Below, in pieces: positions 3,975-20,600 of a DNA stretch of 64,000 bases. A program made the translations under genes and the position numbers. The notes beneath the pieces are model-generated. The model searched no databases. It worked only from the letters and a program-made list of their open reading frames with translations, and was not told where the DNA came from. The DNA is from Aminithiophilus ramosus (GTDB lineage Bacteria > Synergistota > Synergistia > Synergistales > Aminithiophilaceae), in the NCBI RefSeq assembly GCF_018069705.1, contig NZ_CP072943.1, positions 2,671,668 through 2,735,667 on the forward strand, read 5' to 3'. Within the stretch, counting starts at the first letter, position 1; each line of letters starts with the position of its first letter.

Positions 3975-3982
3975 TCTGACGG

Positions 3983-4012
3983 GGAGAGGAGGAAGTCCCT
4001 CCTCTCCCTCTT
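3983..4012 (+). terminator. Intrinsic terminator-like hairpin after icd
   Basis: GGGAGAGGAGG-aagtc-CCTCCTCTCCC stem-loop lies immediately downstream of the icd stop, followed by a T/C-rich run. Confidence 0.45.
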
Positions 4013-4122
4013 CTCTCCCTGACCGCAGGGAAAGCAAGGGGCCTGCCGGTCTCCGCATCGAAGTCGCAGAAGTGACGGAGAGACGGAGCCGGGAGCGCCC
4101 CTTTGCGCTATGATCGACAGCG

Positions 4123-4434
4123 ATGAATCGACGATCTCCTCCGATCGTCAGAAGGAGCGTGATATTCGTGATCGAAACAATCGCCCAGGCGGGAACGCTG
4201 GAGTCGTCGGACTGTCTCGTGACGGTCTCGCCGTCGCCGACGCTGGAGCTGGAGTGTCGCGGCGCGACGGCGGGGCTTTTCGCCGAGCGTAACCGCGCCG
4301 TCGTCGAATCGGTCCTGCGAGAGCGGGGTCTGACGGGAGCGAAGGTGCAGATCCAGGATCAGGGGGCGCTGGAGCTGACCCTCCGGGCCCGGATCGGCAC
4401 GGCCCTGGACCGGGCCCGGGGAGGCGCGCGATGA
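4123..4434 (+). CDS. citD: Citrate lyase acyl carrier protein (gamma subunit)
   Basis: The AGTLESSD motif contains the conserved prosthetic-group serine. The size matches CitD. The stop overlaps the citE start (ATGA). The true start may instead be a GTG at 4159 or 4168, 3'/downstream of the AGGAG SD at 4152-4156. Confidence 0.7.
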   Translation: MNRRSPPIVRRSVIFVIETIAQAGTLESSDCLVTVSPSPTLELECRGATAGLFAERNRAVVESVLRERGLTGAKVQIQDQGALELTLRARIGTALDRARGGAR

Positions 4435-5303
4435 GGCTCCGCTCCATGCTCTACATCCCCGGCAACAGCCCGGCCATGATCCAGCAGGCTCCCGTCTTCG
4501 GGGCCGACAGCATCCTCCTCGACCTGGAGGACGCCGTGGCCCTCTCGGAGAAGGACAGCGCCCGCGATCTGGTCTGCGCCTTCCTGAAGGGCCTCGACTT
4601 CGGCACGGTCGTCGTCACGGTCCGCCTCAACGGATCGGACACGCCCTTTTTCGACGGTGACCTCCGGGCCGTGATCCCCTGTCGCCCCGCCGCCGTCCGT
4701 CTGCCCAAGTGCTCGTCGCCTCAGGACGTCCTGGCCTGCGACGCCCTCATGGCCGAGCTGGAGAGGGAGTCGGGCCTCGACGTCGGCACGGTGAAGCTCC
4801 ACGCCATGATCGAGACGGCCCGGGGCCTGTCCAACGCCCAGGCCATCGCCGACTGCTGTCCCCGCGTTACGGCCCTCACCCTGGGCGGCCAGGACCTGAC
4901 GGCCGACATGGGGGTGAGGAAGACCCGCGAGGGGAAGGAACTCTTCACGGCCCGGACCCTGGTGGCCCTGGCGGCCCGCGCCGCGGGGATCGACGCCTTC
5001 GACACGGTCTGGACCGACGTGAACGACAACGAAGGACTCCTGGAGGAGACGAAGGCCGTCGTCGGCCTGGGCTTTTCGGGCAAGGCGGCCATCCATCCCG
5101 GCCAGATCGAGTGGATCCACAAGGCCTTCGTCCCCGAGGCCAAGGAGATCGTCAGGGCCCGACGCATCGTCGAGGCGGCCCAGGCCGCCGAGGCCGAGGG
5201 CAGAGGCGTCGTCTCCGTCGACGGCAGGATGGTCGACGCTCCCGTGGTGAAGCGGGCCCTTCACACCCTCGAGATGGCCCGACTGGCCGAGGAGGTGCTC
5301 TAG
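4431..5303 (+). CDS. citE: Citrate lyase beta subunit (citryl-CoA lyase)
   Basis: HpcH/HpaI aldolase/CitE-family signatures (LDLEDAV, MIETA, ALTLGGQDL) and a GGGGAGG SD. Confidence 0.85.
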   Translation: MRLRSMLYIPGNSPAMIQQAPVFGADSILLDLEDAVALSEKDSARDLVCAFLKGLDFGTVVVTVRLNGSDTPFFDGDLRAVIPCRPAAVRLPKCSSPQDVLACDALMAELERESGLDVGTVKLHAMIETARGLSNAQAIADCCPRVTALTLGGQDLTADMGVRKTREGKELFTARTLVALAARAAGIDAFDTVWTDVNDNEGLLEETKAVVGLGFSGKAAIHPGQIEWIHKAFVPEAKEIVRARRIVEAAQAAEAEGRGVVSVDGRMVDAPVVKRALHTLEMARLAEEVL

Positions 5304-6875
5304 ATGACACGTGACAGAGGACGGGTCGTCAACGGGCTGGGACGTCGCGTCCCGGCCTTCATCGAAGGGCTCGGCGCCTTCGATCCCTACGAGGGCCCCT
5401 GGAGCCGCCTCGAGCGGGGCTACGAGGCGCCCCGCCTCGTCCCGCCCCTGCGGGGGTCGATGCCGCGGAAGACGAAGGTCGTCGAAAGCCTCCGCCGTGC
5501 CATCGAGGCCTCGGGCCTTCAGAGCGGCATGACCCTCTCCTTCCACCATCACCTGCGCAACGGCGACGCCCTTCTCATGGCCGTCCTGAACGAATGCGAG
5601 GCCATGGGGATCGGAAACCTCACCCTCGCCCCCAGCTCCCTGACCGACGCCCACGACGGGGTGGCCGACCTGGTGCGGCGGGGCGTCGTGAGCCAGATCC
5701 ACACCTCCGGCGTCCGCGGCGCCGTGGGCAGGGCCATCTCGAAGGGGGAGGTCCCCTTTCCCGTCGTCATCCGCAGCCACGGGGGGAGGGCGCGGGCCAT
5801 CGAGGAGGGCTCCATCTCCATCGACGTGGCCTTCCTGGCCGCCCCGGCCTGCGATCCCCAGGGGAACCTGACGGGGGCCCTGGGCCCCTCGGGGTGCGGC
5901 TCCCTGGGCTACGCCCAGATCGACGCCCGCCACGCCCGCCACGTCGTGGCCGTCACGGACCACCTCGTCCCCCAGCCGCTGAACCGCATCTCCATCCCCC
6001 AGTACCTCGTCGACCAGGTCGTCGTCGTCGAGAGCCTGGGAGACGCCTCGAAGATCGCCACCGGGGCGGCGCGGATCACGCGGAGTCCCGTGGACCTCAA
6101 GATCGCCCGCGACGCCTACCGCCTCATCGCCGCCTCGGGGCTGCTCGCCCCGGGCGTCTCCTTCCAGGTCGGCGCCGGAGGAGCCAGCCTGGCCGTGGCG
6201 GCCTTCGTCCGGGACCACATGAAGGAGAAGGGAATCAAAGGGAGCTGGGGCTGCGGCGGGATCACGGGCTACATGGTCCGGATGCTCGAGGAGGGACTCT
6301 TCGAGGCCCTCTACGACGTCCAGAGCTTCGACGCCGCCGTCCGTGACTCGCTGGTGCGCAACGGCAACCACATCGAGATCGACCAGTCCTGGTACGCCAA
6401 CCCCCTCAACCGGGGCTGCGTCGTCCACAACCTGGACGTCGTCGTCCTGGCGGCCCTGGAGGTGGACGTGGCCTTCAACGTCAACGTCATGACGGGACAC
6501 GACGGCGTCCTCCGCGGCGCCTCGGGGGGCCACTGCGACACGGCGGCCGGGGCCAAGCTGGCCGTCGTCGTCGTCCCCTCCTTCCGCGGCGGCGTCCCCT
6601 CCATCCTCGACCGGGTCCAGACCGTCGTCACGCCCGGCGAGACCGTCGACGCCATCGTCACCGAGCGGGGCCTCTGCATCAACCCCCGGAGGAGCGATCT
6701 CATCGAGGCGGCCCGCTCCGCCCGGCTGCCCCTGAAGGAGATCGCCGACCTCAAGAGGGAGGTCGAGGCTCTCACGGGAGTCCCCCGCCCGAACGAGCCC
6801 GATTCGGACCGCGTCGTCGCCGTCGTCGAGTACCGCGACGGCACCCTCATCGACAGCGTCTTCCAGGTCAAGTAG
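5304..6875 (+). CDS. citF: Citrate lyase alpha subunit (citrate CoA-transferase)
   Basis: Aligns along its length with E. coli CitF (GMTLSFHHH, HTSGVRG, CGSLGY, VQSFD, LRGASGGHCDTA, VVEYRDG). Confidence 0.9.
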   Translation: MTRDRGRVVNGLGRRVPAFIEGLGAFDPYEGPWSRLERGYEAPRLVPPLRGSMPRKTKVVESLRRAIEASGLQSGMTLSFHHHLRNGDALLMAVLNECEAMGIGNLTLAPSSLTDAHDGVADLVRRGVVSQIHTSGVRGAVGRAISKGEVPFPVVIRSHGGRARAIEEGSISIDVAFLAAPACDPQGNLTGALGPSGCGSLGYAQIDARHARHVVAVTDHLVPQPLNRISIPQYLVDQVVVVESLGDASKIATGAARITRSPVDLKIARDAYRLIAASGLLAPGVSFQVGAGGASLAVAAFVRDHMKEKGIKGSWGCGGITGYMVRMLEEGLFEALYDVQSFDAAVRDSLVRNGNHIEIDQSWYANPLNRGCVVHNLDVVVLAALEVDVAFNVNVMTGHDGVLRGASGGHCDTAAGAKLAVVVVPSFRGGVPSILDRVQTVVTPGETVDAIVTERGLCINPRRSDLIEAARSARLPLKEIADLKREVEALTGVPRPNEPDSDRVVAVVEYRDGTLIDSVFQVK

Positions 6876-6991
6876 GCCGGGCCTCCGAGGCGGGCCCCGC
6901 CCGACGAAGCCCGTTCCTCTTCGACGATTCCGCCCTGTTTTGTCGGCCCGAGCCGGTGCCGTCACCCTAACCCTTCCCGGAGGTGTTCCCG

Positions 6992-7759
6992 ATGAAACTC
7001 ATCCGTTTTCTCCCCTCAGGCAGCCAGGCCCCCCTCTGGGGCCTCATCGACGGCGAATCGGTCGTCGTCACCGACGGTCCCGGCGGCGACGGGACGTCCA
7101 TCTCCTTTCCCCTCGACTCGGTGCGCCTCCTCGCCCCGGCCGAAACGCCCAAGATCGTCTGCGTCGGCCGGAACTACCTGGACCACATCCGCGAGCTGGG
7201 CAACGACGACCAGAACCTCCCCGCGGAGCCGGGCCTCTTTCTCAAGCTTCCCAACACCCTGGCCGACCCCGGAGCGGTCGTCCCCTACCCCGCCTTTACG
7301 GAGAACTTCCACTACGAGGGAGAGCTGGCCGCCGTCATCGGCCGGACGATGAAAGACGTCTCCGAGGAGGAGGCCCTCGGCCACGTCCTCGGCTACAGCT
7401 GCGCCGTCGACCTGACGGCTAGGGACCGCCAGAAAAGCGACCTCCAGTGGACCCGGGCCAAGAGCGCCGACCTCTTCTGCCCCCTCGGCCCCTGGATCGA
7501 GACCGAACTGGACCCGGCGAAAAGCCGCGTCACGACGCGCGTCAACGGCGAGGTGCGCCAGGACGGGACGACGGATCTCATGATCTTCCCCGTCGCCCGC
7601 GTCCTGAGCTACATCTCGACTTTCATGACCCTAGAACGGGGCGACGTGGTCCTCACCGGAACGCCCTGCGGCGTCGGCGAGCTTCACCCCGGAGACAGGG
7701 TCGACGTCACCGTCGACGGCGTGGGCACCCTCTCCGTTTCCATCGGCGAGAGGGCCTGA
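6992..7759 (+). CDS. Fumarylacetoacetate hydrolase (FAH) family protein; candidate soluble oxaloacetate decarboxylase (FAHD1/YcgM-like)
   Basis: FAH-fold motifs ([25 protein letters not shown]). It lies directly downstream of citDEF, which suggests an oxaloacetate decarboxylase role. A GGAGGTG SD sits 5 nt before the ATG at 6992. Confidence 0.7.
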
Positions 7760-7770
7760 CGCCGTCCCTC

Positions 7771-7823
7771 GGCCATGAATGCAGGAAGGGCCCCCGATGG
7801 GGGGCCCTTCCTGCATTCATGGC
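7771..7823. terminator. Bidirectional terminator between convergent genes (perfect 24-bp-stem hairpin)
   Basis: GGCCATGAATGCAGGAAGGGCCCCC-gatg-GGGGGCCCTTCCTGCATTCATGGCC lies between the FAH (+) and DUF4276 (-) 3' ends. Confidence 0.6.
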
Positions 7824-7885
7824 CTCCTGCTCCCTCGACAGGACCTGCCGTCGCGGAGGCGGACCGCCCCGGGAGAGAGTCTCCC

Positions 7886-8569
7886 TCACCGTGCCCCTCC
7901 GGCCAGGCCTTCCAGCGACGTCACCCAGGCGTCGAAAAGGGGACAGGCGCGACGCATCGCGTCGATGCCGACGGCCTTGGCGATCCCGATTCCCGTGACG
8001 GTTTTCTTGAACGTCGGGGAGAGGGCTTTCAGCCTTTTCGACGGGGCTCCGTCGGGGCGATCGTTGATCCCTTCCGGCTCTCGGCACTCGCCGAGAATGG
8101 CGTCGATCCCCTTCCGCGCGACGCCCAGCCCGGCCGCCAGAGTGGCGGGATCGCTGAAATAAAGGGCCTCCGTCTCATGCATGGAGACGTAAGGGATGAA
8201 GCGTCGATCCGGGTCCCGATCCGCGAAGAGCGTTTGGACCTCTCGGGCCGTGGCGCCGTTCATGACCGACGCCTTTGCGGCGGAATCGGCCTGCCGCTTC
8301 GATTCGGCATATCCCGGCCAATCCGTCCCGATGCCGTAATAATCGATCATGAGGGTCACCCACGTATCGCTCCGCTGCTTGAGAAGGTTTCTGATGTCCT
8401 TTTGGGCCCTTGCGAACCGGACGTCGCCGCCCTTTGCTCCCGGCTTGGAGAGGATGACCGCTTCGAGCCAGATCCCCTTCTCTCCCAGGTAAGGAGCGAG
8501 AAGATCTCGTACAAAGTACCGCTCCGTGGCCCCTTCGACGAGGGCGACCACCGTCGCCGTCTCACTCAT
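7886..8569 (-). CDS. DUF4276-family protein, Toprim-like (putative nuclease partner of the AAA_21 ATPase)
   Basis: An N-terminal VVALVEGATE motif (Toprim-type acidic strand) and an AGGGAGG SD. Its ATG overlaps the stop of the upstream ATPase (ATGAGTGA), indicating translational coupling. Confidence 0.7.
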   Translation of the reverse strand: MSETATVVALVEGATERYFVRDLLAPYLGEKGIWLEAVILSKPGAKGGDVRFARAQKDIRNLLKQRSDTWVTLMIDYYGIGTDWPGYAESKRQADSAAKASVMNGATAREVQTLFADRDPDRRFIPYVSMHETEALYFSDPATLAAGLGVARKGIDAILGECREPEGINDRPDGAPSKRLKALSPTFKKTVTGIGIAKAVGIDAMRRACPLFDAWVTSLEGLAGGAR

Positions 8570-9695
8570 GGTTCGAGCCTCCCTGGATCACATTTCTGAC
8601 CCAGAGATCACCGAGGGAGTATTCCTCGAGCCATCGGCTGAAAGCATCGCGATCGAGCCGTTCGAAAAGGGATTGGCCCTCTTTCCGGTTGACCACCACC
8701 ACCTCTTCGACGGAGAACTGATCGATGAGCAGAGGCGATTGGGTGGCGACGATGATCTGCGTCCGCTCCGCCCCGTCCCGGATCAGCTCTCCCAGGACAC
8801 GGATCGCCTCGGGGTGGAGCCCCAGCTCGGGCTCGTCGATGACGATCGTCGACGGAGGCCGAGGCTGGAGAAGGGCCGTGGCCAGGCAGATGAAACGGAT
8901 GGAGCCGTCCGAGAAGTGGTAGGGCTGCATGGGAAAATCGGAGCCCCTCTGGCTCCAGCTCAGCCTCACCTTTTCGGCCTCGCCCATCGTCACCGCATCG
9001 AGAAGGAAGTCGTCGAAAAAGGGAAGGATCAGACGGGTCGCCTCGACGATCTCCCGATAGAGGGCGCGGTGGTCATCGCTGTTTTTCAGCCCCAGCAGGA
9101 AGGGGGCGATATTGGCGCCGTCGCTCCGGAGAATCCTGTTGTCCTCGACGATCTCCGAACGGCGCATGGGGGCCGTTGAACTCGTGTCGTGGAAGTGATA
9201 GACCATCCAGCTCGCGATGGCCTCGTAGACGTAATGGCCGACACCGGGGCTTTTCCCGCTGAGGGAGGTTTCGCCCCGTTCGTCGAAGAGGCGGCTCTCC
9301 GACGAGGGGCCTCCGTAGGAGCGCCAGCTGCTCGTCACATACTTGCGCTCCTCGCTGACGAGAAAGGTCTCGTCCACGGTGGGCGCCAGCTCCAGGCGGT
9401 AGGCATTCGGGCCCTGGGCGGAGTCGCTGAGAGAGGCGAACTCGAAGGCCATCCTGATGGAAGAGGTCTGTCTGGGCCCGTTGTGGAGGAAGTTATCGGC
9501 GCCACCGTTTTCCCGGACGAACTTCTGCAGATTTTTTCGCGTCATCGCCATAAGCAGGCGAAAGATCTGAATGAAGTTGCTTTTGCCCGAGCCATTGGCA
9601 CCGACGATGACGTTCACCTCTCCGAGATCGAAATCCTTCAGCTCCCTGATGGATTTGAATCCCTCGACGCTGATTCTGCTGACGGCCCCTCTCAT
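8562..9695 (-). CDS. AAA_21/AAA_15-type ABC-like ATPase (SMC/RecF-like; OLD/AbiLi/PARIS-AriA-like architecture)
   Basis: N-terminal Walker A (GANGSGKSN) and C-terminal Walker B plus signature (IVIDEPELGLHPEA ... TQSPLLI). A GAGGGAGG SD. The gene has somewhat lower GC than its surroundings (visual estimate ~60% vs 68-70%). Confidence 0.75.
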   Translation of the reverse strand: MRGAVSRISVEGFKSIRELKDFDLGEVNVIVGANGSGKSNFIQIFRLLMAMTRKNLQKFVRENGGADNFLHNGPRQTSSIRMAFEFASLSDSAQGPNAYRLELAPTVDETFLVSEERKYVTSSWRSYGGPSSESRLFDERGETSLSGKSPGVGHYVYEAIASWMVYHFHDTSSTAPMRRSEIVEDNRILRSDGANIAPFLLGLKNSDDHRALYREIVEATRLILPFFDDFLLDAVTMGEAEKVRLSWSQRGSDFPMQPYHFSDGSIRFICLATALLQPRPPSTIVIDEPELGLHPEAIRVLGELIRDGAERTQIIVATQSPLLIDQFSVEEVVVVNRKEGQSLFERLDRDAFSRWLEEYSLGDLWVRNVIQGGSNHE

Positions 9696-10060
9696 CGCGA
9701 GCCTCCCTCGATCCTATGAGTCTCGCTCTTTGCAGAGGGACCAGGAGGCGCAGGACCGCGAGGGCCGGCACCTCCGGTAAGCGATTTCTGCGCGCCGTGA
9801 TCGCGACGAGCGTTCCCGGTCATTCTCCCGATCATCTCCTCGTCAAAGTCCTTTTCGAAAGACATCTTCCGAGAAAGAACCGATAAGAAATCCTTCGGCG
9901 ACGGGCATCCGCCTTTCGCGACTCCATGATAACCGACGGCGCCTCTGCGCCCAAGGCCCTCTTTCGGTTTCCCTCGCGGCAATCGATCGGGGCAACGCGG
10001 GCCTTCGGGTTCCGTCGCCGCAAAGGCGGGCCCCCGGTGAAAGGAGTATCGACGGTGGCG

Positions 10061-11803
10061 TCACGGGTCGGGGAAGCGCTCCCTGACGGCCAGGAAGGCC
10101 TCCATGTCGTTCAGGACGAGGTCCACCAGGTCGGGATCGAACTGGCGCCCCCTCTGGGTCCGGAAGTAGTCGGCCACGGCCTCGGCCGTCCAGGGCTCCT
10201 TGTAGCAGCGGCGGCTCAGGAGGGCGTCGAAGACATCGGCCACGGCCACGAGGCGCCCCATGATGTGGATCCCCTCTCCGGCCAGTCTCCGGGGGTAGCC
10301 CGATCCGTCCCAGCGCTCGTGGTGCTGGCCGGCGATGAGGGCCGCCACCTGAAGGGCTCTCCTCCGCGACCGCCCCAGGAGGGCGGCGCCGATGGCGGCG
10401 TGTTTTTTCGCCTCCTCGAACTCCTCGTCGCTGAGCCTGCCCGGCTTGGAGAGGACGGCATCGGGAACGGCGATCTTGCCCAGGTCGTGAAGGGGAGCCG
10501 CCCGGCGCAGCAACTCCACGTCCGAGGCGTCGAGTCCCCTCTTCTCGCCCAGGAGGGCCGCCACTTCGGCGACGCGTCGGACGTGATTGGCCGTCTCGTG
10601 GGACCGCCCTTCGATGGCGTCTCCGATGAGGTCGATCGTCTCCTCCTGGGCATCGAGAAGCTCCTTCTGGAGGGACTGGAGCTCGGCCCTGTGGCGCAGG
10701 AGGCGGTTCTTGCGGCTCAGGGCCCCCATAAGGAGGGCGATGACGACGAGCAGAAGGGCGATGACGACCGCCGCGACGAGAAGAATCTCGCGATGGCGCT
10801 CGTAGAGGGAGGGAGGACGGCCGACGATGACCGTTCCCGGAGGGAAGTCTCCTTCGTCGAGGCCGAAACGCCTCATGACGGCGTAGTCGGCGAAGTAGCC
10901 GGCCTGGAGGTCGACGGCACGGGAGAGGACGGCGGGAGCCTGCCCCCGCCAGAGCCCCTCGAGGTAGCGGGCTCCCGTATAACCGACGTTACGGGGCGAG
11001 AGCATGTAGCCTCCCAGCGTCCCGAAACCCAGGAAGTGCGTCCATGGAGAGTAGAGGGGAGCGGGGGCGACGAGGGAGAGGGTCCCGACGACCTCGCGGG
11101 GCGTCACGCCCCGGTTGTCGCGCTCGTCGCGGGAGAAGGCCAGAAGCAGGAGGATGTCCTCTTCCGTCGTCTCTCCCAGGGCCGATTCCGCCTCGGCCAG
11201 GGAGGCGCAGCCGCGGATCTCCCAGGAGATCCCTCGCCCCTCGCGGGCGACGAGAAGGGGTCGGATCTCCTCCTCCACGGCACGCCCCGTCTCGGTGCCG
11301 TCGTGAAAGGCGCGGATCCGCCTGGCCCCGGGGTTCTGCCTCAGGGCCAGATCGAGGGTCCTCTCCAGGTGAAGCTCCTCGGGAATGACGTGGACGTTGG
11401 GCGGAAGGGGGGGGATGGAGCCGTTGTAGCCGACGGCCACGACGGGCACGTCGGAGAAGAGAGAAGACAGGTGGCGCCGATAGAAATCGAAGGCCCCGTT
11501 GTCGGAGAGGATGACGCCGTCGATGGCGACGCCGCGGAACTTGTAGCGCAGAAGGGCGCCGAGGCGGTCGAGGTAGTCCGGCGCCAGGCGGTGCTTCATG
11601 TCGAGATACTCGACGCGCAGGTCGGGCCTCTCGCCCGACTGCCGAAAGGCTTCGACGATGCCCTGGTGAAGCTCCTCCGTCCAACTCAGGTCCCGTCCGT
11701 AGGAGTGGACGACGAGCACCGTTCCGGGGGCCGCCTCCCCTCTGAGGGGCGGCGGAAGGAGGATAACGGCGGCGAAGAGCAGGAGGACAAGGCGCCTCAT
11801 CAT
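10061..11803 (-). CDS. Periplasmic-sensor HD-GYP phosphodiesterase (c-di-GMP signalling)
   Basis: Signal peptide, a periplasmic ABC-substrate-binding-like domain, a transmembrane helix (LLVAAVVIALLLVVIALLMGA), a coiled coil, then an HD-GYP domain (HDLGKIAVP ... HHERWDGSGYP). Confidence 0.8.
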   Translation of the reverse strand: MMRRLVLLLFAAVILLPPPLRGEAAPGTVLVVHSYGRDLSWTEELHQGIVEAFRQSGERPDLRVEYLDMKHRLAPDYLDRLGALLRYKFRGVAIDGVILSDNGAFDFYRRHLSSLFSDVPVVAVGYNGSIPPLPPNVHVIPEELHLERTLDLALRQNPGARRIRAFHDGTETGRAVEEEIRPLLVAREGRGISWEIRGCASLAEAESALGETTEEDILLLLAFSRDERDNRGVTPREVVGTLSLVAPAPLYSPWTHFLGFGTLGGYMLSPRNVGYTGARYLEGLWRGQAPAVLSRAVDLQAGYFADYAVMRRFGLDEGDFPPGTVIVGRPPSLYERHREILLVAAVVIALLLVVIALLMGALSRKNRLLRHRAELQSLQKELLDAQEETIDLIGDAIEGRSHETANHVRRVAEVAALLGEKRGLDASDVELLRRAAPLHDLGKIAVPDAVLSKPGRLSDEEFEEAKKHAAIGAALLGRSRRRALQVAALIAGQHHERWDGSGYPRRLAGEGIHIMGRLVAVADVFDALLSRRCYKEPWTAEAVADYFRTQRGRQFDPDLVDLVLNDMEAFLAVRERFPDP

Positions 11804-11984
11804 ATCCCTCCAGACGGGACTGTACCTTTTTCAAAGTATAAAGCTTTCCATCTTCTCTTGCCCTCACGAAAAGGAGTCCATAATGTATCCGCAAGAGGGA
11901 CCTCCCCGAGCGTCCCCTCTCCATGCAGAGATCTCCGCCAGGAGGTATGATTTCCCGAGAATCTCAGAACAGGAGGCGAACCCC

Positions 11985-13526
11985 ATGAAACTCTCCCGGC
12001 TTCTGGCCCCGACGAGCCGCAACAACCCCTCCAAGGTCCGCGACGAGGCGGCGATCCGCCTCGTCCGGGGAGGCTACGGCCTTTACGAGCCCTCCTCGGA
12101 GGAGCTGCTCCTTCTCCCCCTGGGAGAGGTGACCCTCGGCAACATTTTCGACCTCTTCGACGATCTCTGCCGCGACGAGGGGGGCCAATCCGTCGACAGC
12201 GCCTCCCTTCCGGGCGGCGCCCTGTCCATCGCCGTCCGCATCGTCAAGCAGGAGGAACAGCTCCCCCTCCTCCTCTTCGAGCGGCGCGGAAGGGGTCTGG
12301 ACCTCCTCTCCATCGACGGAGCGTCGGCCCCCGATCCCGACGGCGACCCGATCCTGGAGCGTCTCGGGGAGGAACTTCGCGACAGGGGGCTGGAGCCGGT
12401 CCTTCTGGAGAAAGAGCCGGGAGGGACGATCCGCCTGGCCCTGAAGGGCTCCCCGAAGGCCCGCAGAGCCGTCGAGGGGCTGGTCTGTCCCCACTGCGGC
12501 TGGGCGGGGACGGCCCACTCGCCCGCTCCGGGACGGATCGTCGATTACGGCCCGAGCCAAGAAGCCCTGAAAGAGGTCCGCACGCCGGGGGCGGACACCA
12601 TCGCCGAACTCTGCCGTCAGCTCGACCTCCCGCCGGAGCGGACGCTGAAGACGATGTTCTACAGCCTCCCCGCCCCTGACGGAGAGGGACGGCGGGTCGT
12701 CGTCGTCCTCATGAGAGGGGACTGCAAGATCAGCGAGGCCAAGGTGGCCGCCTTCTTCGGCGTCGACGAGGTCCGCTTCGCCACGGCCGTCGAGCTTCAC
12801 GAGACGATGGGCAGCCTGGGGGGCTATCTGGGCCCCGTGGGGCTCCCCGAGGGCGTCACCGTCATCGCCGACGAGAACGTCCAGGGCCTCGCCGACGTGG
12901 CCGTAGGGGCCAACAGGGCCGATCACCATCGCACCGGAGCGGCCTGGGGGCGCGACTTCCGGGCCGTCGTCACCGATCTGATCGCCCTCGAGAAGGGAAA
13001 GCCCTGTCCGGCCTGCGGCGCCTCCCTCGAAGAGGCGACGTGGCGCGTCATCGCCGAAAGGACCCCTCTCGGCACCCTGCCCGAGGGCATGGATCTCTCC
13101 TACCGGGACAGCGACAGGAAGCCCCGCAGACCCCGCCTCGCGACGACGCGCCTCGACGCCGAAGCCCTCCTGATGGCCTTCTTCGACGGAGACACGCTCC
13201 CCCTCGACATCGCCCCCTTCCAGGTCCTCGTCACTCCCTGGGGGGAGGGGGAAAGCTCCTCGGCCGAAGCGGCCGAAAGCCTCCACGACGAACTGAGCGA
13301 GGCGGGGTTCGCCGTCCTCCTCGACGATCGTTTCGCCAAGGCGCCCCTCAGGGAGGCCGACTTCGACGGCCTGTCCCTGCCGGTCCGCATCGCCCTCCAC
13401 GACGAGGCGGACTCGGTCCGGGCGACCCTCCACATCGACGGGGAGACGGCCGATCTGCCCCTCGACGACGCCGCCCACTTCCTCTTCCACGCCCTTGGCG
13501 GGTCCTGCAGCTGCTGCGACTCCTGA
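11985..13526 (+). CDS. Prolyl-tRNA synthetase-like protein with a degenerate catalytic core and a retained INS/YbaK-like editing domain
   Basis: The N-terminus (MKLSRLLAPTSRNNPSKVRDEAAIRLVRGGY) parallels bacterial ProRS. The editing domain is conserved (TLKTMFY ... VVVLMRGDCKISEAK ... GSLGGYLGPVGLP). The anticodon-binding region is conserved (APFQVLV ... AVLLDDR). Class II motifs 2 and 3 are not recognisable. An AGGAGG SD precedes the start. Confidence 0.65.
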   Translation: MKLSRLLAPTSRNNPSKVRDEAAIRLVRGGYGLYEPSSEELLLLPLGEVTLGNIFDLFDDLCRDEGGQSVDSASLPGGALSIAVRIVKQEEQLPLLLFERRGRGLDLLSIDGASAPDPDGDPILERLGEELRDRGLEPVLLEKEPGGTIRLALKGSPKARRAVEGLVCPHCGWAGTAHSPAPGRIVDYGPSQEALKEVRTPGADTIAELCRQLDLPPERTLKTMFYSLPAPDGEGRRVVVVLMRGDCKISEAKVAAFFGVDEVRFATAVELHETMGSLGGYLGPVGLPEGVTVIADENVQGLADVAVGANRADHHRTGAAWGRDFRAVVTDLIALEKGKPCPACGASLEEATWRVIAERTPLGTLPEGMDLSYRDSDRKPRRPRLATTRLDAEALLMAFFDGDTLPLDIAPFQVLVTPWGEGESSSAEAAESLHDELSEAGFAVLLDDRFAKAPLREADFDGLSLPVRIALHDEADSVRATLHIDGETADLPLDDAAHFLFHALGGSCSCCDS

Positions 13527-13629
13527 GTCGTCCCCGGAGGGAAAGGGACATGGAGCCCCTTCCCTCCGGGGGCTCTCTGCCTTAGGATAGGAGCGCTCCT
13601 CACTCCATCTGCCGGGAGGTCCTTTCATC

Positions 13630-14520
13630 GTGACCCTTTCCTTCGCCTGGGGCGTCTTGCTGGCCCTGGCCGCCGCCGCCATCTGGGCTTTGGCCCCCGT
13701 CCTCTACCGCCGTTCCCTCGATCACGTTTCGTCTCTCGAACTGGGCGCCCTGCGCACCATCGGCTCCGTGGCCGGAGCCGCCCTCTTCCTGGCCTGGAGG
13801 GAAGGGCTCCCGGCCTTTTCCCCGCCCCCTCTTCCCCTGCTGGCGGCCATCGTCGTCTCCTCCACCGTCTGGCTCGTCGTCGGCGACTTCCTCTACTTCC
13901 TGGCCCTGCCCCGGCTGGGCGTCTCCATCGGCGTCCCCTTCACCTCGGCCTATCCCCTCCTGGCCGTCCCCGCCTCGTGGATCTTCCTGGGCGAGCCCTT
14001 CCGCCCCATCGTCTTTTTGGCGACGCTCCTCATCGTCGCCGGCCTCGTCCTCCTGACGCTCCGCCTCGACGAAGAGAAGGGCGACGGGAAATCCCTCACG
14101 GCGGGCCTCCTTTTCGCCTTCGGCACCATCTGCTGCTGGAGCTTCGGCATCATCACCAACCGTCTTCTCATGGGGCACATCGCCGTCGCCGGCCTCGAAT
14201 GGTGGCGGGCCCTCTCCGTCCTCGCCGGCTCCTGGATCGTCTACGCCCTGGGAGAACGGGACAAAAGACCCCTCGGGCGGATCGGGGGAAGACTTCTTTT
14301 CGAGATCCTCCTCTCGGGCCTTCTGGGCCTCACCGTGGGCAATCTTTTCTTCACCTACAGCATGAATCACGTCTCCGTCGACGTGGCGACCTGCATCGCC
14401 TCCCTGCGCCCCTTTCTGGCGGCGCTTTTTGCCGTCGTCGTCCTGGGCGAATCCTTCTCTCTGCGCAAGGGAGCGGCCATCGCCCTCGTCGTCTCGGGGG
14501 CGCTGCTGTTATCCTTTTGA
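13630..14520 (+). CDS. DMT-superfamily (EamA-like) permease
   Basis: About ten predicted transmembrane helices with a duplicated EamA topology. GTG start with a GGGAGG SD. Confidence 0.7.
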   Translation: MTLSFAWGVLLALAAAAIWALAPVLYRRSLDHVSSLELGALRTIGSVAGAALFLAWREGLPAFSPPPLPLLAAIVVSSTVWLVVGDFLYFLALPRLGVSIGVPFTSAYPLLAVPASWIFLGEPFRPIVFLATLLIVAGLVLLTLRLDEEKGDGKSLTAGLLFAFGTICCWSFGIITNRLLMGHIAVAGLEWWRALSVLAGSWIVYALGERDKRPLGRIGGRLLFEILLSGLLGLTVGNLFFTYSMNHVSVDVATCIASLRPFLAALFAVVVLGESFSLRKGAAIALVVSGALLLSF

Positions 14521-14626
14521 AACGGCGGCAGGAGCCCTTCTTTTACCCTTCCCTCTGGCGCGAGAGCCCCTTTGCTGTTAGGCTCCAGATGCCCCTCAGG
14601 GGGGACTCTTGATCCGGGAGGAACCG

Positions 14627-15412
14627 ATGACACCCACCTATCGAACGGTCTTCATCTCCGATCTCCACCTGGGGCTCCGCTGGTGTCAGGCCGAAAACCT
14701 CGCCTCCTTTCTGGAGCAGCTTCAGTGCCGAACCCTCTATCTGGCAGGAGACATCGTCGACAGCTGGAAGATGGGTCATCGCCGCCTCCTGCCTCCGTCT
14801 CACCTCCGCGTACTCCGGCTCATCGGAGCCATCGCCGGGAAAAGCCGCGTCGTCTACCTCCGGGGCAACCACGACGACCTTCCCGACGACGTCCTGGGGC
14901 AGCACGCCGAGGGCATCGAATTCCTCCGCCGCGACATTCACGAGACGGCCGACGGGCGACGCTTTCTCGTCGTTCACGGCGACGAGTTCGACCTCTTCCA
15001 GAGGGGACGGTGCCGGCTGGCCCGGATGGGAGCCCGGGCCTTCGACGCCCTCATGTGGTTCGACGCCTGTCACAACCGCCTGCGACGCCTCCTGGGGCTG
15101 CAACGCCGCTATCTGGCCTCTTTCCTGAAGCGCGCCATCAAGGATATGGCCGGATCCATGACGGGTTTCGAGGACTCTCTGGCCCGGGCCGCCCACAGAC
15201 TGGGCCTGGAAGGCGTCATCTGCGGCCATCTCCACCACCCCGCCCTCCGGCACATCGACGACCTCTCCTACTTCAACTGCGGCGACTGGATCCACCACTG
15301 CTCGGCCCTGGTGGAGCAGGAGGACGGCCATCTCGATCTCATCGGCTGGAGAGGGCGGGGGCTGACGGCCCTTCCCCTGGCCGGAGAAAGGCCCTTTCTC
15401 CCCTTGGGATGA
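14627..15412 (+). CDS. Calcineurin-like metallophosphoesterase (LpxH/UDP-2,3-diacylglucosamine hydrolase-like)
   Basis: Motifs FISDLHLG, GDIVD and GNHD; the GGGAGGAA SD ends 3 nt before the ATG at 14627. Confidence 0.7.
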   Translation: MTPTYRTVFISDLHLGLRWCQAENLASFLEQLQCRTLYLAGDIVDSWKMGHRRLLPPSHLRVLRLIGAIAGKSRVVYLRGNHDDLPDDVLGQHAEGIEFLRRDIHETADGRRFLVVHGDEFDLFQRGRCRLARMGARAFDALMWFDACHNRLRRLLGLQRRYLASFLKRAIKDMAGSMTGFEDSLARAAHRLGLEGVICGHLHHPALRHIDDLSYFNCGDWIHHCSALVEQEDGHLDLIGWRGRGLTALPLAGERPFLPLG

Positions 15413-15416
15413 GAAC

Positions 15417-15460
15417 GGCCTGCGAAAAAGGGCGGCTACGGCCGCCCTTTTTCGCAGGCC
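15417..15460. terminator. Bidirectional terminator (perfect 20-bp-stem hairpin) between convergent genes
   Basis: GGCCTGCGAAAAAGGGCGGC-tacg-GCCGCCCTTTTTCGCAGGCC. Confidence 0.6.
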
Positions 15461-15467
15461 GGAAACG

Positions 15468-16412
15468 TCAGACCCTGCCTGCCAGGTCCCGCGGGGCCGG
15501 AAGGCCTGCCAGTGACGAGGCCTGGGAGACGGCGTCGACGACGGCTCGCTCCACGGCCCGGACGGCCAGGATCCCCACGACGGAGAGGTCGGCCTCGACG
15601 ACGGGACGGGAGAGGGCGAAGATCGTATCGCCGTCGACCATGGAATGGGCGGGTCGGAGCGTCCTTCCGTAGCCGTCGTGGGCCATCGAGGCCAGCTTGC
15701 CCATCTGGGCCTTGGTGAAGGCCCCGTTGGTGAGGACGACGCCCAGCGTCGTGTTGCCGCCGAAGAGGTCGCGCTTCTCCCTCCAGGCGGCGATCATCTC
15801 CCTTTCCGTGTCGCCCTGCCGCCCCTGTCCGTCGCGAAGACCGGCCACGAGACATCCCCTCTCGGGATCGAAGACATCGCCGAGACAGTTGACGGCCACG
15901 AGGGCCGCCACTTCCAGCTCCCCCTCCTTCTGGAGGGACCAGCCGATGCCGCTTTTCATGGCCCGCTCCATTCCCAGGAATTTCCCCACCGAGGCCCCCG
16001 TTCCGGCGCCGACGGACCCTCTCGCAGGCTCTTCCTCGACGGCATCGAGGCAGGCCTGATAGCCCATGAACCGATCGGGACGGACGCGGCCGTCGCCGAC
16101 GGTGAGGTCGAAAAGGGCCGCTCCGCAGACGATGGGCACCGTCGTCACCGCCACGTCGAAACCGACGCCCCGCTCCTCCAGGTAGGTCATGATGCCCGAC
16201 GCCGCGTCGAGGCCGAAGGCGCTCCCTCCGGCGAGAAAGACGGCGTGGACCTTTTCGACGAGATTGACGGGCGCCAGAAGGTCCGTCTCCCGCGTCGCCG
16301 GGGCGCCTCCGCGAACATCGACGCCCGCCGAGGCCCCCTCCTCGCAGAGGACGACGGTGACGCCCGTCGCCGCCGCCCTGTCCTGTCCGTGGCCGATGCG
16401 AAATCCCTTCAC
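15468..16412 (-). CDS. DmpA/S58-family (P1) aminopeptidase
   Basis: Motifs VKGFRIGHGQD, TGVTVVL and LAGGSAFGL. A GTG start follows a GGAGG SD (chosen over the upstream ORF-track start at 16535). Confidence 0.7.
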   Translation of the reverse strand: MKGFRIGHGQDRAAATGVTVVLCEEGASAGVDVRGGAPATRETDLLAPVNLVEKVHAVFLAGGSAFGLDAASGIMTYLEERGVGFDVAVTTVPIVCGAALFDLTVGDGRVRPDRFMGYQACLDAVEEEPARGSVGAGTGASVGKFLGMERAMKSGIGWSLQKEGELEVAALVAVNCLGDVFDPERGCLVAGLRDGQGRQGDTEREMIAAWREKRDLFGGNTTLGVVLTNGAFTKAQMGKLASMAHDGYGRTLRPAHSMVDGDTIFALSRPVVEADLSVVGILAVRAVERAVVDAVSQASSLAGLPAPRDLAGRV

Positions 16413-16561
16413 TGCCTCGCCTCCTCTGTGCCTGACGACTCGAGGACCGCCATCGAGACGGCCCCGCCCATTATACCGTCGGTTTTCCCCAGGCCATTTC
16501 CAAAAAGGCTTCTTCCCTCTATACTCTAGATGCAAATCATTCGCATAAGGAGGAGAGTCCC

Positions 16562-17455
16562 TTGAAACGTCCCGTTCTGTCCGGCATCCTGACGGTCATC
16601 GCCCTTCTGGCCGTCGTCCTTCCCGCCTCGGCCGACCCCCTGTCGGTCTTCGTCAGCGTCCTGCCCCAGAAGTTCTTCGTCGAGGCCATCGGCGGCCCGT
16701 CCCTGACCGTCCACGTCATGGTCCCCCCCGGAGCGAGCCCCGCCACCTACGAGCCCAAGCCCCAACAGATGGTCGAGCTCTCCGGCGCCGCCCTCTACTT
16801 TTCCATCGGAGTCCCCTTCGAAAAGGCCTGGATGAAGCGTCTCTCTTCGGCCAACGCCTCTCTTAAAATCGTCGCCACCGACGAGGGAACGGAGAAACGG
16901 GCCATGGCCGCCCACCACCACGACGGAGACGACGGCCACGATCACCACCACGGCCACGGCCTCGATCCCCACATCTGGCTTTCGCCCCGATCGGTCCTGA
17001 CTCAGGGACGCGTCATCCTCAGGGCCCTCGTCGCCGCCGACCCCGAGAGGGCCTCCCTCTATCGGGAGAACTACCGCCGCTTCGCCGCCTCCGTCGTCGC
17101 CCTCGACCTGGAGCTTATGGAACGCCTCTCCGTCCTTCCCGAGGGGACGCCCTTCATGGTCTTCCACCCCTCCTGGGGCTACTTCGCCGATGATTACGGT
17201 CTGGAGCAGCTTCCCATCGAGGTCGAGGGGAAAGAGCCCAAGGCGGGCGAGCTGACGGCCCTCGTGGAACGGGCCAAGGCCGAGAAGATCGGCGTCATCT
17301 TCGTCCAGCCCCAGTTCTCCCGCAAGGCGGCCGAGGCCCTGGCCCGCTCGGCGGGAGCGGCGGTGGAGATCCTCGATCCCCTGGCCGAGGATTGGGACGA
17401 AAACCTGCGCCGCGTCGCCGAGGCCCTCGTCGTCTCCGCCTCCCGGCGGCAATAG
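16562..17455 (+). CDS. znuA: Metal (zinc/manganese) ABC transporter substrate-binding protein with a His-rich loop (ZnuA/TroA-like)
   Basis: Signal peptide, the HHHDGDDGHDHHHGHGLDPHIW His-rich loop, and a TTG start with an AAGGAGGAG SD. Confidence 0.75.
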   Translation: MKRPVLSGILTVIALLAVVLPASADPLSVFVSVLPQKFFVEAIGGPSLTVHVMVPPGASPATYEPKPQQMVELSGAALYFSIGVPFEKAWMKRLSSANASLKIVATDEGTEKRAMAAHHHDGDDGHDHHHGHGLDPHIWLSPRSVLTQGRVILRALVAADPERASLYRENYRRFAASVVALDLELMERLSVLPEGTPFMVFHPSWGYFADDYGLEQLPIEVEGKEPKAGELTALVERAKAEKIGVIFVQPQFSRKAAEALARSAGAAVEILDPLAEDWDENLRRVAEALVVSASRRQ

Positions 17456-17506
17456 CCCCTATCGAAGGGCACGCCGAAGGCGCCGTCGACGGCCTTTGCC
17501 GCCACA

Positions 17507-17564
17507 GGCGGAGGGACACGAAGGAGGGGAGGCGAAAGCCTCCCCTCCTTCGTGTCCCTCCGCC
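17507..17564. terminator. Bidirectional terminator, perfect 27-bp-stem hairpin with a GAAA loop
   Basis: GGCGGAGGGACACGAAGGAGGGGAGGC-gaaa-GCCTCCCCTCCTTCGTGTCCCTCCGCC lies between the convergent znuA-like and tamB-like genes. Confidence 0.6.
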
Positions 17565-17633
17565 GATTCCGCCCTCGGGCCTTCTCCGGCGGAAGGTCGG
17601 GCCTCGCGACGATGTCGGGCTCCCCGCCCTCCC

Positions 17634-20600
17634 TCAGTTGCCGAGAATCTTCTGGAGGATCTGCTGCTGAAGGATCTGGCCCGGATCGGTGGGTTGGACC
17701 TTCTCCGGAACGGCCTGGACGTCCTTGCCCTGGGCGGGGGCCTCCTCCCTTTTCGGCTCCAGAGGCTGTTCGATCCTGATGTTGGAGACCTTGGGCGCCT
17801 CCGTCGTGCCCCCCACGTCGAGGGTGACGTTGCGGAAGTCCCGCTGGGAGGCGCTCCCGGTGACGCCCTGGAAAAGCCCCTTGAGGAGGGCCTCCGGCGT
17901 CTGCCCACCGCTGGTCAGAAGGCCCTCGATGCCGCCGAGGAAGGCGTTGAGAGCCTGGACGTTGACGTTGCCCCTCACGTCGAGGTCGAGTTTCTTGTCG
18001 AACCCGACGGAGCCTTCCGCCTCGAGGGTGCGGTAGAGGGCGTCGTCGGGCTGAGCGAGGGCCCGCGTTCCCGGAAGGAGCTGCAGCCCCGAGCTGTCGA
18101 CGGTGTAGTTGGCCAGGATCGACCGGTAGCGGATGCGGGGAGAGCCGTGGAGCTTGGCCAGAAGCTCGGCCGACCGGAAGCCCTCAAGCTCCCCCTCGCC
18201 GACGGAGAGGACGCCGCTGCCCAGGACGGTGCCGAAAGTGACGTTGCCGTTGCCCTTGAAGGAGAGGTCGGCCGGACCGCTGAGGCTGCCCTTCCCCTCG
18301 GCGAAAAGCCGCGTGACGGCCTTGAGGTCCGCCCCCTTGACGGAGGCCTCGGCCGTCCAGGTCCCGCGCTCCAGGACCACCGACGCCGATCCCTTGGCCT
18401 CGCCGCCGGCGACGTTCGCCCGGGCCCCGTCGATCTTCAGGGAATCCCCGCCGAGAAGGAGGGGGACCTTGAGGTTCGAGACCTCCATGCCCCGGACCCG
18501 CAGCGACGACGACGAGAGGTCTCCCCGGCCGGAGAGGACCTTGCCGTCGGCCGATCCCGAGAGGGAGAAGTCGACCTTGCCGGCCATGGCCAGCTCTTCG
18601 GCCCCGGGGAGTTTCGCCGTCAGCAGGGCCACGTCGACGGCCGAGGCCTGGGCCGAGAAGGTGCCGCCGTAGCCCTCGCCGACCCGGGACAGATCGGCCT
18701 TGGCCGAGAAGGGGGCTCCGCCCACCGTGGCCTCCGCCCGTGAGACCGTGAGGGTCGAAGGCGTCCCCGACGCCTCGACGGCCAGGGCCGTCACGGCCAG
18801 ATCGGCCACGGTCAGAGCCGGCGATGAGGCCTTGACGGAGAAGGAGGGCGCTTCCGTCGTCCCCGAGAGGGAGACGTCGCCGTCGATCCTGCCGGCGACG
18901 ACGACGGGAAGGAGGTCCTTCGTCAGGACCTTCGAGAGATCGACGCCCTTCACCGTCCCCTTCAGGTCCAGAGCCTGAGGGGCTTTGGCCGTGTCGATCG
19001 TCCCCGAAGCCGCCAGGCTTCCCCCTCCGAGGCGGGCCGAGAGATCGGAGAGGCGGATACGGGAGCCCTCCATCTGGACCGACGCGGAAAGGGCCTCGAC
19101 GACGGCCCCCGAGGCGCCGATCTTATCGACGGCGACGTCGAGGGGAGCGGCCAGGAGGGCCTTGCCTCCGGGACTGAAACTCCCCGAGGCCCGGACCCCC
19201 TCGAGGCGGATCGCCGGCTCGGCGTCGAGACGGGACGAGGTCGCCGTGACGGCGAAGGTGGGCGAGGCGACGGGACCGTCGGCCTTCCAGTCCAGGGAGA
19301 CCTTCCCCGAGGGGCGGACCGATCCCAGGGCCGGGGCAAAGGCGACGAGGGAGGCCACGTCGAGGTTCGTCACCTTGCCCGAGAGGGCAAGGTGGGCCTT
19401 GCCCCCGGCGAGGCCCGTCACCTTTCCCGAGGCCGACAGGGCCGCCTGCCCCCAGCGGGACTGAAAATCCTTCAGGTCCAGCCCCGAAGCGGCGTAGGAG
19501 AACTCGGCCTTCGTCCCCTCGAAGAGCTCGCCCTGGAGGCGGGCCCGGGCCGACTCGGCCCTGCCCGTCACGGTGTAGGCCGACGGGTTCCCCTGAAGCT
19601 TCAGGGTGACCGAGGCCTTTCCCTGAGGCTTCTGTGCCGCGAGGGCCTCGTCGAGGGCGCCGAGGCCCGAAAGATCGATCTCGGGAGCCCGCAGGGAGAG
19701 GCCGAAGCGGATCTCGGGCGAGTAGACGACATCGCCCTCGACGGTCAGGGCCGTCCCCATCCAGGAGGCCCCGCCCGACACCTTCGCCCGGCCATCGGTT
19801 CCGAAGAGGGCGTCGACGGAGAGGCCCGTGACGGTCTGCCCTCCGTAGGCGAAACGGGGCGCCCGAAGGAAGGCCTTTCCCTTGAGGGAATCGGCCCGCC
19901 CGCCGAGGGTGACGGTGACGGCCTCGATCGTCCCCGTGGCGCCTTCGAGGCCCGGGAAGGTCGAGACCAGGTCGGCGACGGCCACGTCACGGGCCGAAAG
20001 GCCGATATCCAGATCGGGAGGGAGCTGGCCGAGGCCGAAGGCCATCCGCCCCGTCAGCGGGATGGCGGCCACTCGGGCCTTCACGTCGGGAAAGCTCAGG
20101 GACTTCACGTCATAGCTCCACGAAGTCCGGGCCACGTCGAAGGGGATTCCGGAAAGGCGGCCTCCCTCGAAAAGCAGATCCCCCTCCAGACGGGGGTCGG
20201 ACCAGGCTCCCCGGGCCTTCAGGGTCGTCGCGAAGGTCCCGGCGAATCCGCGCTCGGCCAGGTCGGGCCAGAGTCGGCCCAGATCGGCCAGGTCAAAGCC
20301 CTTGAGATCGGCCGTCACGTCCAGAAGGGGCTCGACGGTCCCCTTCCCCTCGATGCGCCCCTTCCCCACGGCGACGTCCAGATCGGCGACGACGGTCTTC
20401 CCGGAAAAGTCGAGGGCGACCTCGCCCTTGACGGGAAGCTCGCGGAAGAGGACATCGACATCGACGTCCAGTCCCCTCTCCCCGAAGGAGGCCTTTCCCG
20501 AGGCGAGGTGGAGAGCCCCCCCCGGCGTGGCCAGATCGACGCGGCGCATCGTCAGCCTGGAGAGGGGAAAGGAGACGGCCCCCCTGTCGTGAATCTCGTC

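Follow-up and report, generated by a model that had tools for sequence, protein, structure and literature searches.

Prolyl-tRNA synthetases (ProRS) mischarge alanine, and two kinds of Ala-tRNAPro proofreading have been described: the INS domain built into bacterial ProRS, and small single-domain factors such as ProXp-ala, the separate deacylase used by species whose ProRS lacks INS. The INS domain has no tRNA specificity of its own; editing by the Escherichia coli enzyme requires recognition of the anticodon (G35/G36) by the anticodon-binding domain (ABD), and not of the acceptor stem or motif 2. Within INS, L266 and H369 (E. coli numbering) shape a pocket which admits alanine and keeps proline out, the K279A substitution is the standard editing-dead mutation of ProRS, and the equivalent lysine (K45 in ProXp-ala) steers A76 into the active site throughout the INS superfamily. 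According to a 2024 review, every free-standing member of this superfamily is a single-domain protein. A divided arrangement has been described in crenarchaea, where threonyl-tRNA synthesis is split between two threonyl-tRNA synthetase (ThrRS) proteins, ThrRS-cat and ThrRS-ed (Korencic et al. 2004, as cited in PMC3592468 and PMC11295145); the model of ThrRS-ed drawn in the review includes an ABD. Here, we analyse a gene from a 64,000-nucleotide stretch of Aminithiophilus ramosus DNA (contig NZ_CP072943.1; the whole stretch is referred to below as the window). An earlier note on this DNA had described the gene product as a full-length ProRS paralog with a degenerate aminoacylation core and an apparently intact editing domain, i.e. 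a pseudo-synthetase that may have kept trans-editing or, alternatively, may have become a regulator.

We propose that this pseudo-synthetase is probably a free-standing (trans-acting) Ala-tRNAPro deacylase, which would serve an E-type ProRS without an editing domain. In the proposed mechanism, the real ProRS, in this phylum probably an archaeal/eukaryote-like (E-type) enzyme with no INS, would mischarge alanine onto tRNAPro and the paralog would hydrolyse the Ala-tRNAPro formed. K222 (E. coli K279) would guide the mischarged CCA end into the INS pocket, where L209 and H315, the counterparts of L266 and H369, would let alanine in and keep proline out, and the remnant of the core together with the ABD would act as a scaffold and a tRNA-binding surface. 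Since the INS domain is carried on a ProRS scaffold, the elements required for editing (INS and ABD) would be kept, while those required for charging would be dispensable. The deacylase activity and its specificity for alanine and for tRNAPro are inferred. The gene and its parts are as follows (coordinates of the window; aa, amino acids).

11972..11976, plus strand: Shine-Dalgarno sequence GGAGG, 8 nt 5' of the ATG at 11985 (read from the sequence)
11985..13526, plus strand: coding sequence of the pseudo-synthetase, 513 aa and a stop codon (list of open reading frames (ORFs), hidden Markov models (HMMs), structure matches, AlphaFold/Foldseek, ratio of nonsynonymous to synonymous substitution rates (dN/dS))
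11985..12545, plus strand: N-terminal part of the degenerate class II core, aa 1-187 (alignment; no PF00587; beta-strands kept in the model)
12486..12497, plus strand: first CxxC pair, C168/C171, at the entry of INS (invariant in the family)
12546..12989, plus strand: INS (YbaK-like) editing domain, aa 188-335 (PF04073, invariant residues, dN/dS)
12648-12650, plus strand: K222, equivalent to E. coli K279 (alignment)
12927-12929, plus strand: H315, equivalent to E. coli H369 (alignment)
12990..13199, plus strand: C-terminal part of the degenerate class II core, aa 336-405 (alignment to E. coli ProS and canonical hits)
13005..13016, plus strand: second CxxC pair, C341/C344, at the exit of INS (invariant in the family)
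13200..13493, plus strand: partly degenerate class IIa ABD, aa 406-503 (PF03129, invariant residues, model)
13497..13523, plus strand: C-terminal tail GGSCSCCDS (read from the sequence)

The full-length paralog postulated in the earlier note is a real gene of 513 codons. Its start was placed at ATG 11985, because GGAGG precedes this codon and because all relatives begin in an equivalent manner, with M-K/R-L/M-S (alignment of all relatives); a longer ORF starting at position 11883 was rejected on the same grounds. No sigma-70-like promoter was found, and an Rfam scan of the whole window at gathering thresholds gave 0 matches, i.e. no T-box or other leader RNA, tRNA or riboswitch. The G+C content of the window is 60-71%.

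Solved structures of bacterial ProRS (5ucm and 2j3l) matched residues 188-501 with E values of 3e-28 to 1e-26, and the Pfam model PF04073 (tRNA_edit) matched residues 200-322 with 81.1 bits (gathering cut-off 25.5; E 9e-23). The NCBIfam models of proS, whose alignment was limited to residues 189-490, were matched much more poorly: NF006625 scored 142.8 against a cut-off of 558, and TIGR00409 scored 76.6 against 306.7. These values are about a quarter of the curated cut-offs, and by score the protein falls outside the P-type ProRS family. The YbaK models were also below their cut-offs (TIGR00011, 22.8 vs 153.25; NF007951, 15.1 vs 243). An AlphaFold2 model of the 513-aa protein, built with 74 homologues in the alignment, was predicted with high confidence (pLDDT 94.4, pTM 0.90), and Foldseek superposed it over its full length on the ProRS of Enterococcus faecalis (2j3l), Staphylococcus aureus and Pseudomonas aeruginosa, with template modelling (TM) scores of 0.78-0.80 normalised to the query. 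Because the superposition covers the whole length, the N-terminal 187 residues, although invisible to HMMs, still represent a reduced class II core. The PF04073 match and the superposed model together place INS between motifs 2 and 3 of a three-domain P-type fold. Homology to bacterial ProRS thus exceeds chance by a wide margin, and the gene product is a descendant of a bacterial-type (P-type) ProRS which has retained the P-type fold.

The capacity to charge tRNA appears to have been lost. In the residue comparison, made by alignment to E. coli ProS (locus L001) and to canonical ProRS hits and given in E. coli numbering, the substrate loop (residues 72-108) and the motif 2 loop (residues 139-156, fRDEvRPRfGvmRsREF) were found to be deleted. 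Motif 3 (GxGxGxxR) is replaced by ATTRLDAEA, the residues ahead of the TxE motif are replaced as well, and the class II core profile PF00587 gave no match at E<=1. The degenerate core claimed in the earlier note was therefore fully borne out. We compared 14 catalytic positions which do not vary in canonical P-type enzymes (T109, E111, R140, E142, R144, R151, R153, F155, E410, G412, F415, G445, G447 and R450). All of them are lost in the window protein, a single coincidence with the canonical residue being due to a chance alignment inside a degenerate region. Full-length members of the family match, by chance, at no more than 2 of the 14 positions and the ABD-less forms from Synergistaceae at up to 5, while canonical hits match at 13-14; the residues which replace the catalytic ones are not conserved among family members. 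What has been retained in the N-terminal part of the core is the motif 1 region (P45, G47), together with the family-specific invariants P9, D20 and G30. We predict from these deletions and replacements that proline activation and tRNA charging have been lost, and that the paralog is catalytically dead as a synthetase.

The editing domain presents a different picture. All 16 canonical INS invariants (T257, P258, K279, R299, G300, K308, G336, P340, D350, G362, A363, N364, H369, R377, D378 and D386 in E. coli numbering) are kept in the window protein and in nearly every other member, only three members differing at one position each. The residues L266, I263 and H369 are unchanged in 100% of family members. 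Further landmarks of the domain are L209 (E. coli L266), the G280-P284 loop, D296 and G308-A309-N310. The domain thus belongs to the INS superfamily: PF04073 scores above its gathering cut-off, and the lysine, the G-x-x-x-P loop and the gatekeeper histidine do not vary among family members. INS holds 21 of the 30 family-invariant columns. Some positions (C210, Q212, M224/F225 and W321-G322) are invariant in the family and yet unlike canonical INS. The claim of an intact editing domain was amply confirmed, the INS being also the most constrained part of the gene (see below), and the combination of deleted or replaced charging motifs with strictly conserved editing residues is what would be expected of the suggested pseudo-synthetase with trans-editing activity.

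The ABD occupies an intermediate position. The earlier note had stated that the anticodon-binding region parallels that of ProRS, and this holds in part: LLDDR is present and the fold is predicted with high confidence by AlphaFold, but only 10 of 18 canonical invariants are kept, G517, K519 and F520 (G-x-K-F) and R549 (E. coli numbering) are lost, and PF03129 scores 18 bits, below its cut-off of 21. The state of the domain varies among clades (share of ABD invariants kept):

Thermovirgaceae-like clades: 79-83%
Clade of the window protein: 53% (LLDDR kept, G-x-K-F lost)
Aminiphilus-like clade: 35%
Synergistaceae (forms of 410-425 aa): domain absent

INS is the constant feature of the family, and the remaining parts are eroding.

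The INS domain is bracketed by two CxxC pairs, which had gone unnoticed in the earlier note. They are present in 65% of canonical ProRS hits and missing from the ProRS of E. coli and E. faecalis. Both pairs probably form an inherited structural zinc clasp, which would join the two linkers at the base of INS. To our knowledge, no zinc site of this sort has been described for P-type ProRS. The Cys-rich tail GGSCSCCDS, to which the earlier note had drawn attention, is real but is not a feature of the family: its CxC motif is common only to the closest relatives (P0001-P0004 and P0009), and other members end in acidic, D/E-rich tails.

The distribution of the paralog indicates that it represents a conserved family and not a one-off decay. 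A word-indexed search yielded about 55 protein clusters without PF00587, and every named one originated from Synergistota (Thermovirgaceae, Synergistales, Synergistaceae), in agreement with the Synergistetes setting assumed in the earlier note. In a GTDB scan (one genome per species), roughly 58 species carried the family, all of them Synergistota, with Acetomicrobium hydrogeniformans, Aminiphilus and Thermovirga among them; the representative closest to the window protein was only 65-67% identical, so that the species of the window seems to be missing from this set. A metagenome scan added about 70 contigs, and a 98%-identical copy with identical neighbours was found in the Logan assembly SRR29667957. 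The annotation of family members varies among 'proline--tRNA ligase', 'YbaK/EbsC family protein' and 'hypothetical'. We calculated dN/dS against three relatives with 98%, 75% and 66% identity, and obtained the ranges given below, whose low ends stem from the 98%-identical pair, with very few substitutions:

Whole gene: 0.17-0.44
INS: 0.17-0.30
Core remnants: 0.11-0.63
ABD: 0.21-0.50

In the comparisons at 75% and 66% identity INS was clearly the most constrained region, and dN/dS was below 1 in every domain. The gene is under purifying selection.

The proposed deacylase would work on behalf of another ProRS. The window contains no second ProRS: searches with the ProRS of E. coli, a canonical hit and the ProRS of Thermus thermophilus (query identical to the sequence of 1h4q) retrieved only the ORF of the paralog. 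About 1.2 Mb of sequence flanking the GTDB loci yielded no other ProRS, and about 2.2 Mb of Synergistota flanks yielded no intact P-type ProRS. A protein search with the T. thermophilus enzyme was uninformative, as the named organisms among its best 120 matches were Thermaceae/Trueperaceae and one metagenome-assembled genome (MAG) of Pseudonocardiaceae, with no Synergistota. Two metagenome contigs, whose paralogs share 58-60% identity with their counterparts in the named Synergistaceae MAGs L051, L054 and L056, did contain an E-type ProRS (coordinates of each contig):

L155: paralog at 3023-4267, plus strand; ORF of E-type ProRS at 5647-7134, minus strand; 1.4 kb apart
L156: paralog at 10001-11260, plus strand; ORF of E-type ProRS at 15131-16609, minus strand; 3.9 kb apart

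Both synthetases score well above the TIGR00408 cut-off (527 and 531 bits; cut-off 437), their termini (AKAY/AKSY) are of the E-type, and the L156 enzyme aligns along its entire length with T. thermophilus ProRS, at 53% identity. Neither an NCBIfam scan nor full-length alignment to the INS-less Thermus enzyme revealed an inserted editing domain. Because L155 and L156 carry an intact E-type ProRS without INS, at least this branch of the family lives with a synthetase that is unable to edit. The two contigs are syntenic, and the sightings are therefore not independent. A partner of the same type is presumably encoded in the genome from which the window originates.

The genes surrounding the paralog in the window include the following:

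7886-9695, minus strand: HEC-01 candidate anti-phage pair (PADLOC), just beyond the HD-GYP gene
10061..11803, minus strand: HD-GYP-type (HD_5) sensor of 580 aa, divergent from the paralog, with an N-terminal periplasmic/transmembrane part and a C-terminal HD_5 domain
13630..14520, plus strand: EamA/DMT-family transporter, 103 bp 3' of the paralog

The HEC-01 pair consists of an AAA_15/AAA_21 ATPase (HEC-01A, 443 bits) and a DUF4276 protein (HEC-01B, 231 bits). The HD-GYP gene beside the paralog recalls SadB of Pseudomonas, a proteolysis adaptor made up of a YbaK/ProRS-like domain fused to HDOD, a domain related to HD. Adjacency to the HD-GYP gene is conserved only inside the sub-clade of the window (loci L083, L003 and L004), and the position of the EamA gene is kept in relatives down to 66% identity (L083, L084 and L003). 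No terminator-like site was found in the gap between the paralog and the EamA gene, and their co-transcription is possible. Further out (window positions 5304-7759 and 14609-17455) there are ordinary neighbours, encoding a citrate lyase alpha subunit (CitF), an FAA-hydrolase family protein, a calcineurin-like phosphoesterase, a peptidase S58 (DmpA-like) and a ZnuA-type metal-binding protein with a His-rich loop.

No synteny conserved across the whole family was found; in other clades the paralog adjoins dnaK-dnaJ-clpB, a gene for a LivJ-like binding protein, or ahcY. In L014 (CP159918.1, positions 9953-18165) and about 15-17 other Thermovirgaceae-like loci, the paralog lies immediately 5' of a small secreted ORF of 152 aa on the same strand, after which come dnaK, dnaJ and clpB. 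The downstream genes of Thermovirgaceae had been considered as rimP-nusA-infB, which would mark an ancestral proS locus, and this assignment was rejected, the genes being dnaK, dnaJ and clpB. In this sub-clade a putative translational quality-control gene thus adjoins a protein quality-control cluster. One sub-clade of Synergistaceae has a run composed of alaS (on the opposite strand), ahcY, an amidohydrolase gene, the ABD-less paralog and a gene for a 405-aa protein, which has no Pfam match and starts 5 bp past the stop codon of the paralog. This run was identified in L156 (positions 4513-16609) and in L049, L052-L054, L070, L153, L155, L157 and L158 (metagenome contigs Ga0099364 and related MAGs); in L155 and L156 the E-type proS follows within 4 kb.

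Degenerate relatives of ProRS are also encountered outside this family. A HMMER search, run exhaustively over 1.84 billion cluster representatives, revealed 83 further near-full-length clusters with a degenerate core (440-610 aa; 50% identity), distinct from the Synergistota family, in which no more than 6 of the 14 catalytic positions but nearly all INS invariants are retained. Proteins P0109-P0234 include members of this non-Synergistota set, e.g. P0130 (L086, 10001-11683), P0135 and P0164 (L085, 10001-11626), and those with a named source belong to Anaerolineae (Chloroflexota) and Armatimonadota. A sample of 13 kept 95% of the ABD invariants, and in four examples scanned against Pfam PF00587 was missing or weakly matched. 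A profile built from 72 such proteins was closest to the canonical, INS-containing P-type ProRS of Anaerolineae. The proteins of this set appear to represent further, independent occurrences of the same phenomenon. No second ProRS was found near the loci of P0011, P0130 and P0164.

The lost charging site bears most directly on the view that the paralog is a working (or second) prolyl-tRNA synthetase with an unconventional active site. Its full length and well-folded model, as well as the label 'proline--tRNA ligase' given to relatives by some pipelines, agree with this view, but the arginines of the motif 2 loop and of motif 3, on which ATP binding relies throughout class II, are deleted or replaced by residues unconserved in the family, the HMM scores amount to a quarter of the curated cut-offs, and a genuine E-type ProRS occurs on related contigs; this explanation is essentially excluded. 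The same applies to a decaying pseudogene or functionless relic. Such a relic might account for the fairly high dN/dS (0.36-0.63) which the core and ABD show against the more distant relatives, but not for an intact frame with a strong Shine-Dalgarno sequence, dN/dS below 1 in all domains, a confidently predicted fold, and retention in roughly 58 species over several families (Synergistaceae and Thermovirgaceae among the named ones) with 30 invariant columns. It is unlikely, in our opinion, that the paralog deacylates something other than Ala-tRNAPro, e.g. Cys-tRNAPro (the job of YbaK), Ser- or 2-aminobutyryl-tRNA (the jobs of ProXp-x/ST), or several tRNAs. The literature describes the specificities of the INS superfamily as diverse and relaxed, the family-specific INS invariants differ from the canonical residues, and with an ABD that is half-degenerate here and absent in Synergistaceae the specificity for tRNAPro is not assured. 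On the other hand, no member has a change at the known specificity determinants L266 and H369 or at I263, and the YbaK model gives only 22.8 bits (cut-off 153) compared with 143 bits for the ProRS model. A non-enzymatic regulator or adaptor, which would sense uncharged or mischarged tRNAPro or act as a partner of the HD-GYP protein in the manner of HisZ, GCN2 or SadB, seems quite improbable. SadB provides the precedent of a YbaK/ProRS-like domain which is linked to an HD-type domain and serves as an adaptor without catalysis, the gene in the sub-clade of the window is always divergent from the HD-GYP sensor and 5' of the EamA transporter gene, and no catalytic role is obvious for the conserved core remnant and N-terminal motif. 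However, the adjacency to HD-GYP is confined to one sub-clade, and all catalytic and pocket residues of INS are kept phylum-wide, as expected of a working hydrolase and not of a binding scaffold.

Several observations nevertheless weigh against the reading that we favour, an Ala-tRNAPro deacylase acting in trans for an E-type ProRS. Its proposed partner was seen in two closely related Synergistaceae contigs only, and not in the genome or sub-clade of the window. The ABD has lost about half of its invariants here and is missing in Synergistaceae, so that ABD-guided recognition of tRNAPro may not apply, and its decay or loss leaves the source of tRNA selection unexplained. The conservation of the core remnant and of the N-terminal motif (P9, D20, G30) is likewise not explained by a deacylase. 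The neighbourhood of the gene is unconserved across the family and, in the window, is not related to translation. Finally, the link of the non-Synergistota proteins to Anaerolineae means that such paralogs might coexist with an editing-competent ProRS in some lineages, and this would speak for a function wider than complementation alone.

It is conceivable, although we advance this view only tentatively, that full-length pseudo-ProRS constitute a widespread and undescribed class of proofreading proteins, which has arisen repeatedly in several phyla and has undergone stepwise reduction in Synergistota. In the proposed route, a P-type ProRS would be displaced by another ProRS, after which its charging site would decay while the INS site would remain frozen. 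The reduction would lead from core, INS and intact ABD (Thermovirgaceae-like forms), through a degenerate ABD (the window), to the absence of ABD (Synergistaceae). If true, this series would document how single-domain trans-editors, such as ProXp-ala, might have arisen from whole synthetases, and suggests an evolutionary route from a synthetase to a stand-alone editor following displacement by an E-type ProRS. It would also provide a natural experiment on what INS needs when acting in trans, with the ABD intact, degenerate or absent. The degenerate clusters outside Synergistota suggest that the phenomenon may be general. The family moreover flags a systematic annotation error, its members being called 'proline--tRNA ligase', 'YbaK/EbsC family protein' or 'hypothetical protein'.

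The literature consulted describes neither a ProRS-like pseudo-enzyme, whether from Synergistetes or from other organisms, nor a ProRS equivalent of the ThrRS split, and the paralog can be placed among known systems only by partial likeness. With P-type ProRS (E. coli ProS and E. faecalis 2J3L) it shares the order of domains (core 1, INS, core 2, class IIa ABD), identical active-site residues of INS and the CxxC pairs flanking INS, which are inherited from canonical ProRS, many of which have them. It differs from these enzymes in lacking the ATP/proline site, in being about 60 aa shorter and in its partly degenerate ABD. HisZ, the HisRS-like domain of GCN2 and SadB resemble it as proteins derived from a synthetase or an editing domain, in which the original catalysis has been lost; these are regulators or adaptors, whereas the paralog strictly preserves its hydrolytic site.

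The homologous catalytic fold with the conserved lysine is common to ProXp-ala (PrdX), YbaK, ProXp-x, ProXp-ST1/2 and ProXp-7/8/9. ProXp-ala, in addition, clears Ala-tRNAPro for INS-less ProRS, which is the job proposed here for the paralog. Nevertheless, the ProXp-type factors are single-domain proteins of about 160 aa, and ProXp-ala reads the acceptor stem (G72/A73), while the paralog is a multi-domain protein of 513 aa with a ProRS-type INS. The free-standing INS families described so far are all single-domain, and the paralog fits none of them. The closest functional analogue of the paralog is the crenarchaeal ThrRS-ed, where a synthetase gene without editing is likewise combined with a synthetase-derived editor which proofreads in trans. 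The paralog is an editing domain on a degenerate synthetase scaffold, and an editing-less synthetase is encoded beside it on the related contigs L155 and L156, though not within the 64 kb of the window. The two systems are analogous and not homologous, as they differ in the amino acid, the editing fold (ThrRS N2/DTD-like vs INS/YbaK-like) and the domain of life; moreover, ThrRS-cat and ThrRS-ed represent one split gene, while the partner of the paralog would be a phylogenetically distinct E-type ProRS. A dead full-length ProRS which keeps only its editing site, throughout a phylum, would be a third form of Ala-tRNAPro proofreading, and the ProRS counterpart of the ThrRS-cat/ThrRS-ed split.

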